Positions 25,039 to 48,353 of a stretch of 64,000 nucleotides of DNA are shown in pieces. Origin of the DNA: Escherichia phage vB_EcoM-ZQ3; sequence record MW630116.1. One strand, given 5' to 3'. The notes below the pieces were generated by a model. That model was not told the DNA's origin, searched no databases, and saw only the letters and a list, made by a program, of their open reading frames with translations. Within the stretch, counting starts at the first letter, position 1, and every line of letters starts with the position of its first letter. A program made the translations under genes and the position numbers.

Positions 25039-25724
<686 letters not shown>

Positions 25725-40885: not shown

Positions 40886-41109
40886 TGGCTAAATTGATTA
40901 TAGAAGGGTCTGAAGATGTTTTAAAATGTTTTGCCGCCTGGTTTAGTTGCTCAGGCGAGCAATCATTCATTGAAGCATTTAGAATGGGTGATATTACTGG
41001 AAACTATCCGGCAACTGATATCACTGTACGTGGATATGGTATTAATGAGCCTATCCAATTGGTCGAATATGACCTTGCCACTGATGAGGAAATTCCTTAT
41101 GTCGATTGA
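40885..41109 (+). CDS. Hypothetical protein
   Basis: 74 aa. Confidence 0.45.
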   Translation: MAKLIIEGSEDVLKCFAAWFSCSGEQSFIEAFRMGDITGNYPATDITVRGYGINEPIQLVEYDLATDEEIPYVD

Positions 41110-41365
41110 AGATATTAAAGGCTACAAGCCACATACCGACGATAAAATCGGTAAAGTGAACGCTATTAAAGATGCAGAAGTCCGTCTTGGATTGTTGTTT
41201 GATGCTCTGATTGAAGAAGCATATATCTTGAAAGAAAATGAAACAGAGCAACAAACCAAAGAAGATATGGATGCAGTACAGGCTCTTAAGTATGCTAAGC
41301 AACATCTAAAAGAAGCCAGCATGTGGGCCTGTCGTGCAGTATTTCGACCTGAGGAAAAATACTAA
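41099..41365 (+). CDS. Hypothetical protein
   Basis: 88 aa from ATG overlapping the upstream stop. Confidence 0.45.
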
Positions 41366-41664
41366 TGGCTCAAATCCTATCAGGCTTTGGAACTCATTAT
41401 GAATCATCTAGACGCATAACTGAAAGCAATCCTTTTGGCCTTGTTCCGAAGCACAAAAAAATTCAAAGCCTTGATGACTTTGAGAACCGCCTATGGGCCC
41501 TCTTTAATGAGTACAAGGCATATCTGAAAGAAGACGCTGACGATTGTCTTGAAGAAGATGAGATTGCGTATTACGAACAACGCCTTGAACAGCTCAAGAA
41601 CTTCCACCAGGTTCGTGACGAAGTATCTAAAGCAGTTAAAAAGTTAATTCCTTTCAAAGAGTAG
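41365..41664 (+). CDS. Hypothetical protein (T4 vs-cluster position)
   Basis: 99 aa helical protein next to regB. Confidence 0.45.
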
Positions 41665-41720
41665 TTTACTTCTCCTCTAGATGTGTTACTATAGACCTGT
41701 CAACTAGAGGAGAAATCAAA

Positions 41721-42179
41721 ATGACTATCAATTCAGACGTTTTTATCCGCCGCAATAAACTCCGTCGAATCTTTGAAACGGAGTTCCGCAAAATAAATGC
41801 CAGTATAAAAGATGCTGCAAAGTCTCTTGGACTACCAGGCTTTCATATCAAGTATTCTCAACATCTCTTAGATCGTGCCATCCAGAGAGAAATAGATGAG
41901 AACTACGTTTTTGAATTATTTCGTAAAGTAAAAAATCATGTTAAAGAAGTTGCAGAATTTTTATCAATGCCGGCACGTCCGGATGTTGATGAAGATTTTG
42001 TCGAAGGCGTCGAATATCGCCCAGGCCGTTTAGAAATAACTGATGGAAATCTTTGGTTAGGACTTACAGTTTGTCGCGAAAATCCAGCATTCAAAATGAA
42101 GACTCTTCAATGCAGAATGGCTATTATTAACAGTAAACGACTACCAGGAAAAGCTTCTAAAGCAGTGATTAAAATCTAG
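41721..42179 (+). CDS. regB: RegB endoribonuclease
   Basis: 152 aa; matches T4 RegB as recalled; promoter cassette upstream. Confidence 0.8.
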   Translation: MTINSDVFIRRNKLRRIFETEFRKINASIKDAAKSLGLPGFHIKYSQHLLDRAIQREIDENYVFELFRKVKNHVKEVAEFLSMPARPDVDEDFVEGVEYRPGRLEITDGNLWLGLTVCRENPAFKMKTLQCRMAIINSKRLPGKASKAVIKI

Positions 42180-42187
42180 AGGTAAAC

Positions 42188-42730
42188 ATGAGAAAAGCAC
42201 TACTCGCTGGTCTATTTGCTCTTTCATTATCAGCACATAGCTCCGAGCATACTTTTAGTAATGTCCAACTCGATAACTTGAATTATGCTTATCAGTTTGG
42301 GGAACAGTTTTCTAAGGACGGAAAATTTAAAACGCATGAAAATATGCATAAGAAAGGACTTGGATACATAATGGCCGCAATACTATGGCAGGAATCATCT
42401 GCTGGTATTAATCTTAAAGATAAGAAAGGTCACCATGCGTATGGAATGTTCCAAAATTATCTACCAACAATGAGGGCAAGAATTAACCAGCTTGGTTATA
42501 ATATGTCTGATGCCCAAATTAAGAAAATGCTATCTAAGCGGTCTAATTCAGCCAGATGGGCTTATATCGAATTTTCTTATTGGTTAAATATACATAACGG
42601 GGATATAAGAAAAGCTATATCCTCATATAATGCGGGATGGAAGACAAGTGCTGGAAGTAAATATGCTTCTGAAGTCCTAGAAAAGGCTAATTACCTTAAA
42701 TCAAATAAACTACTGGAAATAAAAGAATGA
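42188..42730 (+). CDS. Secreted lytic-transglycosylase-like protein (SLT domain)
   Basis: Signal peptide MRKALLAGLFALSLSAHS; catalytic-type ILWQESS and SSYNAGW motifs. Confidence 0.65.
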   Translation: MRKALLAGLFALSLSAHSSEHTFSNVQLDNLNYAYQFGEQFSKDGKFKTHENMHKKGLGYIMAAILWQESSAGINLKDKKGHHAYGMFQNYLPTMRARINQLGYNMSDAQIKKMLSKRSNSARWAYIEFSYWLNIHNGDIRKAISSYNAGWKTSAGSKYASEVLEKANYLKSNKLLEIKE

Positions 42731-43074
42731 CCAAAATGTTGGCTTTAATAGTTGGCTTGGTTTCATTTAACGCTCTTGCTAATACTACATATACTGATGT
42801 AACGGAGTATACAAACAGAACAGCGTCTGATTATTGTGGTAAAAGTCAAGAGTGTAAAGTAGATTTTTCACAAAAATTGTTATATGCGTATAAAGACGGA
42901 GAAAAAGATGGGGCGTCTAGTAGGTTCAAGGCGTCTACCTTAATTAAAAGATACTATAAAAAATGGCAAATATTAGAATGCTCGGTGGCGGAACCTAAAG
43001 ATAAGGCAGCATGCAATTCTATGGTGGACCGTCTAGTTGACTCTTATACTAGAGGACTTGCAGCAAGTGATTAA
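42727..43074 (+). CDS. Secreted Cys-containing protein
   Basis: Signal peptide MTKMLALIVGLVSFNALA; four Cys; 115 aa. Confidence 0.5.
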   Translation: MTKMLALIVGLVSFNALANTTYTDVTEYTNRTASDYCGKSQECKVDFSQKLLYAYKDGEKDGASSRFKASTLIKRYYKKWQILECSVAEPKDKAACNSMVDRLVDSYTRGLAASD

Positions 43075-43534
43075 AAACTATATCAAGGGCGATATTGTCG
43101 CCCTGTTTTCTAAAGGTAATAATATTGCTCATGGGTGTAATTGTTTTCATACAATGGGCGCCGGTGTGGCAGGACAATTAGCAAAGGCTTATCCAAAAAT
43201 TCTAGAAGCCGATAAACTTCAAACCGAATTCGGAGACGAGTCTAAACTCGGGACTTATTCGGTTTATGAAAAATATTTTAAGACCCACAAAGCTTATTGC
43301 TTTAATCTTTATACGCAGTTTGAGCCGGGACCTAATTTTGAGTACTCTGCTTTAATGAATTGTATAATAGAATTAAATAAATTCGGAAAGAATAAGATAA
43401 CAAAGCCTGTAATTTATATGCCAAGAATTGGTGCAGGTATCGGTGGTGGAAACTGGGACGTCATCGAAGAGATTTTAGATACGTATTCCACTAAACTAGA
43501 AATTGTGATTGTTGATTGGGAACCATTATTATGA
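43067..43534 (+). CDS. Macro-domain protein (ADP-ribose binding or hydrolysis); start uncertain (GTG 43067 or TTG 43037)
   Basis: NIAHGCNCFHTMGAGVAGQLAKAYP and RIGAGIGGGNWDVIEEIL resemble macro-domain glycine-rich loops; no in-frame ATG at the N-terminus. Confidence 0.55.
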   Translation: MIKNYIKGDIVALFSKGNNIAHGCNCFHTMGAGVAGQLAKAYPKILEADKLQTEFGDESKLGTYSVYEKYFKTHKAYCFNLYTQFEPGPNFEYSALMNCIIELNKFGKNKITKPVIYMPRIGAGIGGGNWDVIEEILDTYSTKLEIVIVDWEPLL

Positions 43535-43743
43535 ATATACATTATCCACATCCATATGACCCAAAGAATAAGGCAGTAATTATTCGTCAATGGGAACGCA
43601 TTTGTCGTACCAAATGTCCAATTAATAGTCCACATGATGTAGATAAAGACTACATCGGAACATTCGTTGAATATACTTTTATCGATAAGAAAGGCCGTAA
43701 ACAACATGTAGAAGAATATTGCTTAAAGGTGACATGGTTATGA
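43531..43743 (+). CDS. Hypothetical protein
   Basis: 70 aa; ATGA overlap. Confidence 0.45.
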   Translation: MNIHYPHPYDPKNKAVIIRQWERICRTKCPINSPHDVDKDYIGTFVEYTFIDKKGRKQHVEEYCLKVTWL

Positions 43744-43925
43744 GTTTAAGTAAAGAACAAAAAGACAGACTGTTTTCTCTTATTCACGAAGTTATGGATA
43801 AAAATAGTGAATTGGAAAAAGTTTGCGATGAATGCGGTCCTTTTAATACCGACGAATACGAAGAACTGTGTAAAGATTTCGACGATAAAGAACAAGAACT
43901 TATTGATTATATAAATTCCTTATGA
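43740..43925 (+). CDS. Hypothetical small acidic protein (paralog of the next ORF)
   Basis: 61 aa; shares an N-terminal pattern with 43922..44119. Confidence 0.45.
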   Translation: MSLSKEQKDRLFSLIHEVMDKNSELEKVCDECGPFNTDEYEELCKDFDDKEQELIDYINSL

Positions 43926-44119
43926 TTACTCGCGAACAAAAGAATGAAATACGATTTTTAATCAGCGAAATTATTAGTTTAGAACGAGATTTATCTTTTG
44001 AATTGGCTTCGGATTATGGAGATGCTGAAACATACTACGAATTAGTAAAATCTATCGATAAAGCTGAAAATGATTTAGAAACATATTTAGAAAATTTAAC
44101 TAAGGACTCTTATGGCTAG
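43922..44119 (+). CDS. Hypothetical small acidic protein
   Basis: 65 aa. Confidence 0.45.
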   Translation: MITREQKNEIRFLISEIISLERDLSFELASDYGDAETYYELVKSIDKAENDLETYLENLTKDSYG

Positions 44120-44693
44120 TTTAATTTTTACATATGCCGCTATGAACGCTGGTAAGTCTGCTTCATTACTTACTGCCGCACATAACTATAAAGAACGTGG
44201 CATGGGTGTATTAGTTCTTAAACCGGCTATTGATACTCGCGATTCAAAAGGTGAAATAGTCTCTCGTATTGGTATTCGTCAGGACGCCAATATAATTACA
44301 AAAGACATGGATATCTTTGAATTCTATAAATGGGCTGCAGCACAAAAGGATATTCATTGTGTATTTGTTGACGAAGCTCAGTTCTTAACTACTGAAAAGG
44401 TGTATCAACTTAGTCGTATTGTTGACGTATACAATGTGCCGGTAATGGCATATGGACTACGAACAGATTTTAAAGGTAATCTATTTGAAGGTTCTCAAGC
44501 ATTAATGGCTATTGCCGATAAGCTTGTTGAACTTAAAGGCGTCTGTCATTGTGGTAAAAAGGCCACAATGGTAGCTAGAGTCACGGAAGACGGACTTCCA
44601 ATTACAGATGGCAGTCAAATTGAAATTGGTGATACTGATAGATATGTGTCATTATGCCGGAAGCATTGGAATGATTTGACAGGGTTGTTATAA
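44112..44693 (+). CDS. tk: Thymidine kinase
   Basis: 193 aa; P-loop AMNAGKS; Zn-binding CHCGKKA...C; T4 Tk-like. Confidence 0.95.
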   Translation: MASLIFTYAAMNAGKSASLLTAAHNYKERGMGVLVLKPAIDTRDSKGEIVSRIGIRQDANIITKDMDIFEFYKWAAAQKDIHCVFVDEAQFLTTEKVYQLSRIVDVYNVPVMAYGLRTDFKGNLFEGSQALMAIADKLVELKGVCHCGKKATMVARVTEDGLPITDGSQIEIGDTDRYVSLCRKHWNDLTGLL

Positions 44694-44720
44694 ATACTAA
44701 TATCTAACCAAGAGGTATAT

Positions 44721-44933
44721 ATGCAGCAATTAAACGAAAGACAACTTCGTAATCTTACTGTAACCCAACTGGATGAAATCCGAAGAGAATTAGGACATTC
44801 TATTTCTCATTTAAACGAGGATATCCGTCAAACTGGTTCTAAAGCTGATTATACACGCAAGCGCAAGCTGGAAAAATACCTCACAGATGTTAAGGCCGTC
44901 CAAAGGCGAAAAATAAATACTGGCCAAAATTAA
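44721..44933 (+). CDS. Hypothetical protein
   Basis: 70 aa. Confidence 0.5.
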
Positions 44934-44945
44934 CAGGAGGCCTAT

Positions 44946-45248
44946 ATGGCCTTAAGAGCGATAGCTGTCATGGCGATGCTGGGGTTTTTTGCAGCAACAA
45001 CTCCTATCGTTGGTACTGCGTACACCGACCCATATTTTGATAACTTTATGGAATCAGGGATTAAAAACGTATATACTTTGTTTGAAATTCAAAATGTCGA
45101 GAATTCTGAAAAATTCTATAAGTATATGGCAAAGCATTACAAAAATAGCCCCTGTGATGATGCATTTGAATGTCATGAACAAGGCATAAAAACTGCCAGA
45201 CAATTTGCCGAGTTCATGAAAATAAAATTAGAGCCTACATCTATCTAA
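44946..45248 (+). CDS. rI: Lysis-inhibition regulator rI (periplasmic antiholin)
   Basis: 100 aa; N-terminal signal-anchor; DPYFDNFMESGIKNVYTLFE and CDDAFEC motifs resemble T4 RI. Confidence 0.75.
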   Translation: MALRAIAVMAMLGFFAATTPIVGTAYTDPYFDNFMESGIKNVYTLFEIQNVENSEKFYKYMAKHYKNSPCDDAFECHEQGIKTARQFAEFMKIKLEPTSI

Positions 45249-45254
45249 TTTAAT

Positions 45255-45283
45255 AGCCCCTTCCTTATGGTTGGGGCTTTTTT
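45255..45283 (+). terminator. Rho-independent terminator after rI
   Basis: AGCCCC...GGGGCT stem plus TTTTT. Confidence 0.6.
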
Positions 45284-45349
45284 GCATTTAGCAGTTTACT
45301 TCTCCTCAGGTTGTGTTATAGTAGTCCTTACTTACTAGAGGAGAACGTT

Positions 45350-45529
45350 ATGTCACGTAAAGAAAAAATTTCTAAGTTAATGTTTTTGATTGAAGAGTAC
45401 GCTAATGCGGTATCTGATTGGGAAAATGCTCATGGTTGCGAAGATGGAGACATCGACATTAACAGAGCTATGAAAAAGATGGCTGATACGCACACCGAAT
45501 TGCAAATGTATGTTAACGAGATTATGTGA
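45350..45529 (+). CDS. Hypothetical small protein
   Basis: 59 aa; GAGGAGAA RBS within a promoter cassette. Confidence 0.4.
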   Translation: MSRKEKISKLMFLIEEYANAVSDWENAHGCEDGDIDINRAMKKMADTHTELQMYVNEIM

Positions 45530-46893: not shown

Positions 46894-47367
46894 ATGATTA
46901 TCAATGAAAACTCTTGGCACTTTAAAATTTATGCCGCGTTCAATAGTACATGGAATCGTCCGAAAACGTTGTGTGCTTATTTTTGGAAAACGTTAATCCC
47001 GGTATTGGCTGTTTCAATTATTGGATTTGCGATTTTAGCAGCAGTAACAATCATTGGCCAAGAAATTTTAACTAGATTCTTTGTTTTTAGCAGTCTATGG
47101 ACATTAGTTCCGGCCTCAATTGGTGTAGGCATTTTAATGGTAGCAGTCATGGCTTTTATTTCTGCCGGGTTGGTAATTGGTCCGTCTTGGTTGTTAGACA
47201 AATATAACGACAGAAAATATTATAAAGAAATTGAGCTCATTGCGCGAAACCAAGAACGAATTAAAAATGGACTTGAGCCTATTGAACGTAAGAAATCATT
47301 AATAGGTGAATACCTTAAAGCTCGTAAAGAAAAAATCTGTCCTACTCTTGAATATAAGGCTAAATAA
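46894..47367 (+). CDS. Predicted membrane protein
   Basis: 157 aa; three hydrophobic helices then a basic C-terminal tail. Confidence 0.5.
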   Translation: MIINENSWHFKIYAAFNSTWNRPKTLCAYFWKTLIPVLAVSIIGFAILAAVTIIGQEILTRFFVFSSLWTLVPASIGVGILMVAVMAFISAGLVIGPSWLLDKYNDRKYYKEIELIARNQERIKNGLEPIERKKSLIGEYLKARKEKICPTLEYKAK

Positions 47368-48353
47368 TGAAAACGATTGTTAAGGCTTACTTTGGTAGCC
47401 ACCTTTATGGAACGTCTACTCCTGAATCTGACGTCGATTTTAAAGAAATTTATGTCCCTCACGCTCGTGATATCTTGACCGGTAACGTTAAAGAACACAT
47501 GAGCAAGAACACGAATAACACATCTTCTAAGAACACAAAAGACGACGTGGACCATGAGTTGTATAGTCTCAAATATTTCTTTAAACTAGCTGCAGATGGC
47601 GAAACCGTCGCATTAGATATGCTTCACACTCCACCAAGTTTAGTAGTTAAATCTGATTTGCCTGATGTATGGAAGTATATTCAAGATAACAGGTCTCGTT
47701 TCTATACCACTAACATGAAATCTTATTTAGGGTATGTCCGTAAGCAAGCTTCTAAATACGGTGTCAAGGGTTCTCGACTGGCTGTTCTTCGTCAAGCCCT
47801 TAAACGTTCTAATGAATGGGGACAATACTTTGATAATGGTGCAGTAATTCGTTTATCACATATGAAGAATGTTCTGCCTGTAGGTGAATTTGCTTCGTGG
47901 GTTGAAACCGAAAACGAGAAAACAGGTAAGCAAACATTCTATAATCTGTTAGACCGTAAATTCCAAGACACATTAACCAATAAAGAGTTCAATGCCATCC
48001 TGGTTAAACTAGAAGAGAACTATGGCGAACGTGCTCGTAAGGCAGAAGCTAACGAAGGTATTGACTGGAAAGCATTGAGTCATGCATGTCGTGGTGGACT
48101 TCAACTATTAGAAATTTATAAAACCGGCGACCTGGTTTACCCACTTCAGGATGCTCCATTTATTCTCGATGTTAAGCTTGGTAAACATACGTTTAAAACT
48201 GTACAAGAATTCCTAGAAGATATCGTTGACCAAGTTGAACATGCGTCAGAACAAGCTGCCAAGAACGGTATGCAACAAAAAGTAGATATGAGTTTCTGGG
48301 ATGATTTCCTTGAACAAGTCTATCTCGAAAATCATAATTCTTACTATAAATAA
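47367..48353 (+). CDS. Predicted nucleotidyltransferase-fold protein
   Basis: N-terminal FGSHLYGTSTPESDVDF fits the G[GS]-x(9-13)-D-x-[DE] signature; 328 aa with helical C-terminal region. Confidence 0.55.
   Translation: MKTIVKAYFGSHLYGTSTPESDVDFKEIYVPHARDILTGNVKEHMSKNTNNTSSKNTKDDVDHELYSLKYFFKLAADGETVALDMLHTPPSLVVKSDLPDVWKYIQDNRSRFYTTNMKSYLGYVRKQASKYGVKGSRLAVLRQALKRSNEWGQYFDNGAVIRLSHMKNVLPVGEFASWVETENEKTGKQTFYNLLDRKFQDTLTNKEFNAILVKLEENYGERARKAEANEGIDWKALSHACRGGLQLLEIYKTGDLVYPLQDAPFILDVKLGKHTFKTVQEFLEDIVDQVEHASEQAAKNGMQQKVDMSFWDDFLEQVYLENHNSYYK

Follow-up and report, generated by a model that had tools for sequence, protein, structure and literature searches.

Does Escherichia phage vB_EcoM-ZQ3 encode an enzyme that erases ADP-ribose, and, if so, what would it be erased from? 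The question is raised by an open reading frame at 43067..43534 (+) of a 64,000-nucleotide stretch of the DNA of this phage (sequence record MW630116.1; hereafter, the window). The original prediction had read this frame, from its glycine-rich loops, as a macro-domain protein that could reverse ADP-ribosylation either by bacterial DarT-type defenses or by the phage's own transferases. We found that the gene is already known, as tk.4 or adfM, and that the guess was right.

We examined whether the frame is a gene and where it begins. A frame +2 open reading frame spans 43037..43534 (+), and initiation at the GTG codon at 43067 yields a macrodomain coding sequence (43067..43534, +) of 155 amino acids (17.4 kDa) plus a TGA stop codon at 43532-43534. 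A GAGGA ribosome-binding site at 43052-43056 precedes the start codon at 43067-43069 with 10-nt spacing (43052..43069, +), as read from the sequence, and the start of the gene overlaps the vs stop codon at 43072-43074 (GTGATTAA). At the homologous place, T4 tk.4 has GAGGA, an 11-nt spacer, and ATG, and the annotations of phages moskry and phi25-307 use the same start as GTG 43067, the moskry codon also being GTG. The position of the T4 ATG, the ribosome-binding site, the vs overlap, and the annotation of relatives together identify GTG 43067 as the correct start, upholding the predicted one. The accompanying remark that the frame lacks an in-frame ATG was literally incorrect, as ATG codons occur at 43154, 43355, and 43418; it held in the sense that no ATG stands at a usable start, all three lying within the conserved domain. 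The dN/dS ratio was 0.067 against T4 (dS ~1.4, dN 0.095) and 0.10 against moskry, indicating a real gene under strongly purifying selection. That 43067..43534 is a real gene is far beyond chance. An antisense open reading frame at 43414-43707 (97 aa) had no support and was taken as spurious.

The 3-kb surroundings were 97-98.7% identical to those of the Mosigvirus-type T-even phages JQD51, SQ17, phi25-307, HX01, and moskry, and the window belongs to a Mosigvirus-type T-even phage. Gene order around the locus was regB (PF10715), vs.1, vs, the macro gene, tk.3 (DUF7202), tk.2, tk.1, tk (PF00265), rI.1, and rI, identical to that of T4. Immediately upstream, and sharing 8 nt with the macro gene, lies vs (valyl-tRNA synthetase modifier; 42727..43074, +), assigned by its synteny with the T4 and moskry gene; immediately downstream, the ATG of tk.3 (43531..43743, +) overlaps the macro-gene stop codon (ATGA). 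The window protein and T4 Tk.4 showed 83% amino acid identity over their full, equal length of 155 aa, and they agree in start position, in their place between vs and tk.3, and in the invariant pocket residues. They differ in the start codon (GTG in the window, ATG in T4) and by 26 amino acid changes, 0 of which fall at conserved pocket positions. Alignment and gene order thus identify the macro gene as the syntenic ortholog of T4 tk.4. In close relatives, it is labeled either 'macro domain protein' (moskry) or 'phosphatase' (phi25-307).

Next, we assessed the fold. Both glycine-rich peptides quoted in the original prediction, GCNCFHTMGAGVAGQLAKAYP and RIGAGIGGGNWDVIEEIL, are found in the 43067-43534 translation. 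The protein scored 28.6 bits on Pfam Macro (PF01661; E 1.5e-6), above the gathering cut-off of 22, and the alignment took in model positions 2-117 of 118. A phmmer search against PDB sequences returned Bt_1257 (4.8e-11), Poa1p (9e-9), SCO6735 (8e-5), TARG1 (1e-3), and DarG (2-4e-3), and a family profile built from 52 sequences returned Bt_1257 (1.9e-17), human TARG1/OARD1 (2e-15), DarG (2e-13), SCO6735 (3.6e-14), and Poa1p (8e-13). An AlphaFold2 model computed on the same 52-sequence family alignment reached a mean pLDDT of 94.3 and a pTM of 0.90 and displayed the three-layer alpha/beta/alpha macro fold. When the model was compared with the PDB by Foldseek, the best matches were Poa1p, TARG1, DarG, Bt_1257, and SCO6735 (TM 0.68-0.80), with Poa1p first. 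There were 143 structural matches at E <= 1e-3, and the best 50 of these 143 were nearly all macrodomains, the rest being designed serine hydrolases of the OSH55 series. The macro-domain claim was thus borne out by Pfam Macro, PDB profile matches, and the AlphaFold2 model; the absence of a macro-fold hit, named at the outset as its refutation, did not occur.

The matches also pointed to a class. All of the top 15 profile matches belonged to the ALC1-like class (TARG1, DarG, SCO6735, Poa1p), as did the Foldseek top 20 except for the designed serine hydrolase 4etj at rank 19, and matches to MacroD-type and viral Mac1 domains were far weaker. [quoted passage not shown] Homologs of the window protein numbered ~2,800 phage records from many hosts, and macrodomains are present in ~41% of myoviruses. 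The broad family PHROG 335, labeled 'phosphatase', takes in Tk.4, PhiKZ gp104, and Adpp.

We then analyzed the pocket, using the 120 closest database homologs for all conservation counts. The segments N25...G31xG33 and G122xG124 are the predicted ADP-ribose-binding loops. Loop 1 of the pocket, H22-G-C-N25-C-F-H-T-M-G31-A-G33 (43130..43165, +), carries the conserved Asn and GxG seen in alignments; H22 was present in 117, N25 in 118, and G33 in all 120 of the homologs. The equivalents of N25 are N22 in DarG, N27 in SCO6735, and N23 in PhiKZ gp104, and mutation of this loop-1 Asn lowers the activity of both SCO6735 (PMC9411070) and PhiKZ AdfM (PMC13309987). Loop 2, the phosphate-binding loop P119-R-I-G122-A-G124-I-G-G-G-N-W130 (43421..43456, +), has P119, G122, G124, and W130 as invariant or near-invariant positions, and its G124 corresponds to SCO6735 G128. 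Between the two loops, the CAG codon at 43316..43318 (+) encodes Gln84, which aligns with the Lys that acts in catalysis in TARG1 (K84), DarG (K80), and PhiKZ AdfM; this Gln was found in 120/120 homologs and has Q85 as its SCO6735 counterpart. In SCO6735, Q85A is inactive and G128E loses activity (PMC9411070).

Gln at the catalytic-Lys column is a defining feature of SCO6735 and of Bt_1257, the best PDB sequence match, and the window protein has it too, although identity to these two proteins is only 24-32%. SCO6735 outpaces DarG in freeing DNA of thymidine-linked ADP-ribose, and its proposed mechanism is water-mediated, with the Gln held by the conserved Asn (PMC9411070). His24, Asn27, Gln85, Gly126, and Gly128 of SCO6735 have their equivalents in the window protein at H22, N25, Q84, G122, and G124; these match residues needed in SCO6735 and argue for an anti-DarTG2 role. 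Several features argue against a thymidine hydrolase. The Lys that is catalytic in DarG, TARG1, and PhiKZ AdfM is missing from the protein. K34 and K89, which position DNA in SCO6735, are absent, being replaced by Ala32 and Gly88, and the mobile loop is short (8 aa), compared with 13-14 aa in SCO6735 and Bt_1257 and 8-10 aa in TARG1 and DarG. The phage family also has an Asp49 and an HxCNC motif of its own, which SCO6735 lacks. The window protein therefore resembles the Gln-type subclass in having Gln at the Lys column and the conserved Asn, but not in mobile-loop length or in K34/K89. Human TARG1/OARD1 is likewise of the ALC1-like fold, but its Lys84/Asp125 dyad is replaced by Gln84/Gly126; TARG1 is also reported to reverse thymidine ADP-ribosylation (PMC8501950).

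Which ADP-ribosylated substrate this pocket would serve is suggested by the genetics of the T4 ortholog. A transposon-insertion screen of T4 (HIDEN-SEQ) recovered tk.4 as the single significant match on cells expressing DarTG2, and a clean tk.4 knockout made T4 sensitive to DarTG2, whereupon the gene was renamed adfM, for anti-DarT factor Macrodomain (bioRxiv 10.1101/2025.11.20.689424). Removal of ADP-ribose from DNA by T4 AdfM is the authors' own inference (bioRxiv 10.1101/2025.11.20.689424). All Tevenvirinae tested earlier, including RB69-type Mosigviruses, were resistant to DarTG2, the responsible factor being unknown at that time. The anti-DarT role proposed in the original prediction is thus supported by the published genetics of an ortholog that is 83% identical. 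The DarTG2 phenotype was established in T4, and we infer that the Mosigvirus copy acts like the T4 copy.

In the mechanism that we propose, host DarT2 would use NAD+ to place ADP-ribose on thymidine N3 at TNTC motifs of single-stranded phage DNA, thereby blocking replication. With its two glycine-rich loops, the phage protein would bind the ADP-ribose and then hydrolyze the ribose-thymine bond, which would restore normal DNA, free ADP-ribose, and permit phage growth on DarTG2 hosts. Catalysis would probably be Gln-type and water-mediated, as suggested for SCO6735, with Asn25 holding Gln84 so that it positions the distal ribose; the window protein is unlikely to use the Lys-dependent chemistry known from DarG and TARG1. 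The reading of the locus with the best support, which we judge likely, is thus a Gln-type, ALC1-like macrodomain that hydrolyzes thymidine-ADP-ribose; it draws on the T4 genetics of one preprint and on extrapolation from SCO6735. T-even phages carry several anti-DarTG genes, with AdfA and AdfN acting against DarTG1 and Tk.4/AdfM against DarTG2, and the window shows the DarTG2 factor kept in Mosigviruses under strong purifying selection.

We also compared the window protein with the DarG family. It scored 31.9 bits on NCBIfam NF048014 (DarG) against an equivalog cut-off of 250, aligning to positions 4-146 of the 338-position model. On the PADLOC DarG model, it scored 33 bits and PhiKZ gp104 133 bits. 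SCO6735 reached the same 32-33-bit level on the DarG family models; the DarG-model similarity is class-level only, a further point against thymidine hydrolysis. K80 of DarG, within its FPTK motif, is replaced by Gln84, and both the C-terminal DarT-binding domain of DarG and an adjacent darT are absent from the 155-aa protein and its locus, respectively. Neither the window nor the phi25-307 genome yielded a DarT2 homolog, and none lay beside 80 bacterial homologs at E <= 0.01, a search made with one DarT2 query and of limited sensitivity. An origin as a captured DarG antitoxin was rejected on Gln84 in place of Lys, the 32-33 bits on DarG models, and the lack of a darT neighbor at the window locus. 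By these comparisons, the Tk.4 family is not of DarG descent. Moreover, the missing catalytic lysine means that the T-even chemistry is not transferable from DarG.

PhiKZ gp104, which was independently named 'AdfM', removes DarT2 marks in vitro (Cell Rep 2026, PMC13309987). It resembles the window protein in being a stand-alone phage macrodomain of the same fold class with an equal proposed task, the removal of DarT2 marks from DNA. It differs in being Lys-type (FPTK) and DarG2-like, with E 9e-25 to Mycobacterium tuberculosis DarG, whereas the window protein is Gln-type, and BLASTP between the two aligned 23 residues only. Their alignments place the name AdfM on two non-orthologous macrodomain lineages, T4 Tk.4 (Gln-type) and PhiKZ gp104 (Lys-type). 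Net charge and pI were uninformative as clues to DNA binding, the validated DNA hydrolase PhiKZ gp104 having a pI of 5.05 and the 155-aa window protein a pI of 6.3.

The strongest alternative holds that the main job of the protein is that of an ADPR-1''P phosphatase, as in Vibrio phage Gary Adpp or yeast Poa1p, turning the product of a RES-domain NADase (aRES) into ADP-ribose. Adpp (KNV71_gp137), encoded in an Adps-macro-Namat operon, dephosphorylates ADPR-1''P, as demonstrated by LC-MS, an activity by which NAD+ can be regenerated through the NARP1 pathway in the face of the aRES defense (bioRxiv 10.64898/2026.01.28.702374). At 38% identity (E 1e-23), Adpp is the nearest biochemically tested relative of the window protein, and this counts against the thymidine-hydrolase reading. 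The two proteins have HxCNC, D49, N80-x-Y82, and Q84 in common, a set that, as such, is missing from SCO6735 and DarG. Poa1p, for its part, is the first structural match as well as a strong sequence match, and 'phosphatase' is the database label of the family (PHROG 335). However, Adpp works only in company with Adps and Namat, NARP1 enzymes encoded beside it, whereas the window gene lies between vs and tk.3. Searched by tblastn (E <= 1), the window and the complete genome of phi25-307, a near-identical Mosigvirus, gave no match to Adps or to Namat; the operons that we located in Chazly21 and Gary served as positive controls. With no Adps or Namat in the genome, the ADP-ribose product would not be recycled by the phage. 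Furthermore, the loop after the Gln is 15 aa long in Adpp and 8 aa in the T-even proteins, the long form occurring in 0/120 closest homologs. Poa1p has Ser at the key position where the window protein has Gln. The DarTG2 phenotype of the T4 ortholog also argues against an Adpp-type role, and overall, we consider a principal phosphatase function unlikely. Side activity on ADPR-1''P is common among macrodomains, and the window protein may possess it.

The bacterial homologs provided observations of their own. Clustering of neighbors at their loci revealed no conserved partner. In a Cocleimonas MAG (L035, 1733-4468), a Tk.4-family macro gene adjoins Adps and Namat, and in a second locus (L039, 4001-5304), one adjoins Adps; both are NARP1-AP-like operons, and the DNA that carries them is probably of prophage or phage origin and was binned into MAGs. 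The remaining 78 of the 80 bacterial loci had no DarT2, Adps, or Namat neighbor.

The thymidine-hydrolase and phosphatase readings could also be parts of one scheme, in which the Tk.4 type is a single Gln-based platform serving two counter-defenses: removal of thymidine-ADP-ribose against DarTG2 and dephosphorylation of ADPR-1''P against RES/aRES. Which substrate is preferred would depend on how long the loop is that follows Gln84 (8 versus 15 aa), and the T-even protein would be an independent lineage that converged on the task of PhiKZ AdfM, not a captured DarG. We offer this scheme tentatively and hold it to be doubtful. At the level of annotation, the labels 'phosphatase' and 'AdfM' are both spreading across the broad PHROG 335 family, in which no fewer than three lineages of different function are combined: DarG-like proteins (Lys-type), T-even proteins (Gln-type), and Adpp proteins with the long loop (Gln-type).

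A further alternative is that the protein neutralizes DarT2 without catalysis, by binding the toxin directly or by shielding ADP-ribosylated DNA. Inhibition of DarT in vitro persists in the catalytically dead variants SCO6735 Q85A, DarG K80A, and TARG1 K84A and is strongest with SCO6735 (PMC9411070), and the other phage factors, AdfA and AdfB, inhibit DarT directly. Nevertheless, invariance across the 120 homologs falls on the pocket and catalytic positions N25, Q84, G122, and G124. The family also occurs in phages that infect many different hosts and in bacteria without a DarT neighbor, a distribution that an enzyme fits better than a toxin-specific binder does. Non-catalytic neutralization is therefore improbable, and hydrolysis of thymidine-ADP-ribose remains the reading that we prefer.

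The other substrate suggested in the original prediction, the ADP-ribosylation laid down by the phage's own Alt and ModA/ModB, including RNAylation, whose erasure would tune host takeover, found no support. This phage type does encode Alt-like and Mod-like transferases. Alt and Mod marks, though, are arginine-linked, and their reversal is the work of ARH/DraG-type hydrolases, not of macrodomains; moreover, the Alt/Mod genes are not linked to the macro gene. For tk.4 insertions, a phenotype was reported on DarTG2 cells but none on plain E. coli K-12 (bioRxiv 10.1101/2025.11.20.689424), and we regard self-erasure as very improbable. Weakest of all, and barely credible, is an O-acetyl-ADP-ribose deacetylase or YmdB-like RNase III regulator: several homologs bear the JGI label 'O-acetyl-ADP-ribose deacetylase (regulator of RNase III)' and TARG1/OARD1 has O-acetyl-ADP-ribose deacetylase activity, but this label stems from generic COG transfer, YmdB (5cb3, MacroD type) is only a distant structural match (rank 47, TM 0.59), and no sirtuin context was seen.

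Finally, we examined how the gene might be expressed. A terminator-like hairpin was identified by sequence scan and folding at 43086..43104 (+), within codons 7-13 of the macro gene. It comprises an 8-bp stem and a 3-nt loop (AGGGCGAT-ATT-GTCGCCCT) followed by GTTTTCT, all within 43080-43110 (+). The 26-nt block TATATCAAGGGCGATATTGTCGCCCT is nucleotide-invariant across Mosigvirus, Tequatrovirus (T4, fPS-2), and Dhakavirus (IME281), although proteins sharing this block are just 57-59% identical, and the fPS-2 annotation marks a 'terminator' at the site. The stem is invariant in the E. coli T-even genera and lost in Karamvirus, a Klebsiella phage, and Roskildevirus, a pattern without informative covariation. 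The hairpin may attenuate transcription from vs into tk.4. A sigma-70 promoter scan of 41000-45500 gave 12 matches, fewer than the 16.2 found in shuffled sequence, and no promoter is therefore claimed in this interval. Seven genes in a row, vs.1, vs, tk.4, tk.3, tk.2, tk.1, and tk (42188-44693, +), are chained by 4-nt (ATGA) or 8-nt start/stop overlaps, an arrangement that suggests a translationally coupled block.

Several further observations concern the neighbors and more distant parts of the window. Tk.2 (43740-43925, +) and Tk.1 (43922-44119, +) both match DUF7438 (E 3e-19 and 2e-14, respectively) and are thus tandem paralogues. Vs.1 (42188-42730, +) begins with a signal-peptide-like N-terminal segment and resembles the SLT lytic transglycosylase domain weakly, its 18.3 bits falling short of the cut-off of 21.3; the annotation of one relative calls vs.1 a lytic transglycosylase. 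Farther downstream, 47367-48353 (+) encodes a 328-aa protein with an RlaP-type nucleotidyltransferase domain (RNA-repair pathway, DNA polymerase beta family; E 8e-13), and 3' of it lie several open reading frames of 310-333 aa with weak AAA matches, DUF7235, or no Pfam match. At 25269-25724 (+), the window contains acb1, an ortholog of the anti-CBASS nuclease gene acb1 (T4 57B; PF23474, E 1e-58), which is a second anti-defense gene of the window.
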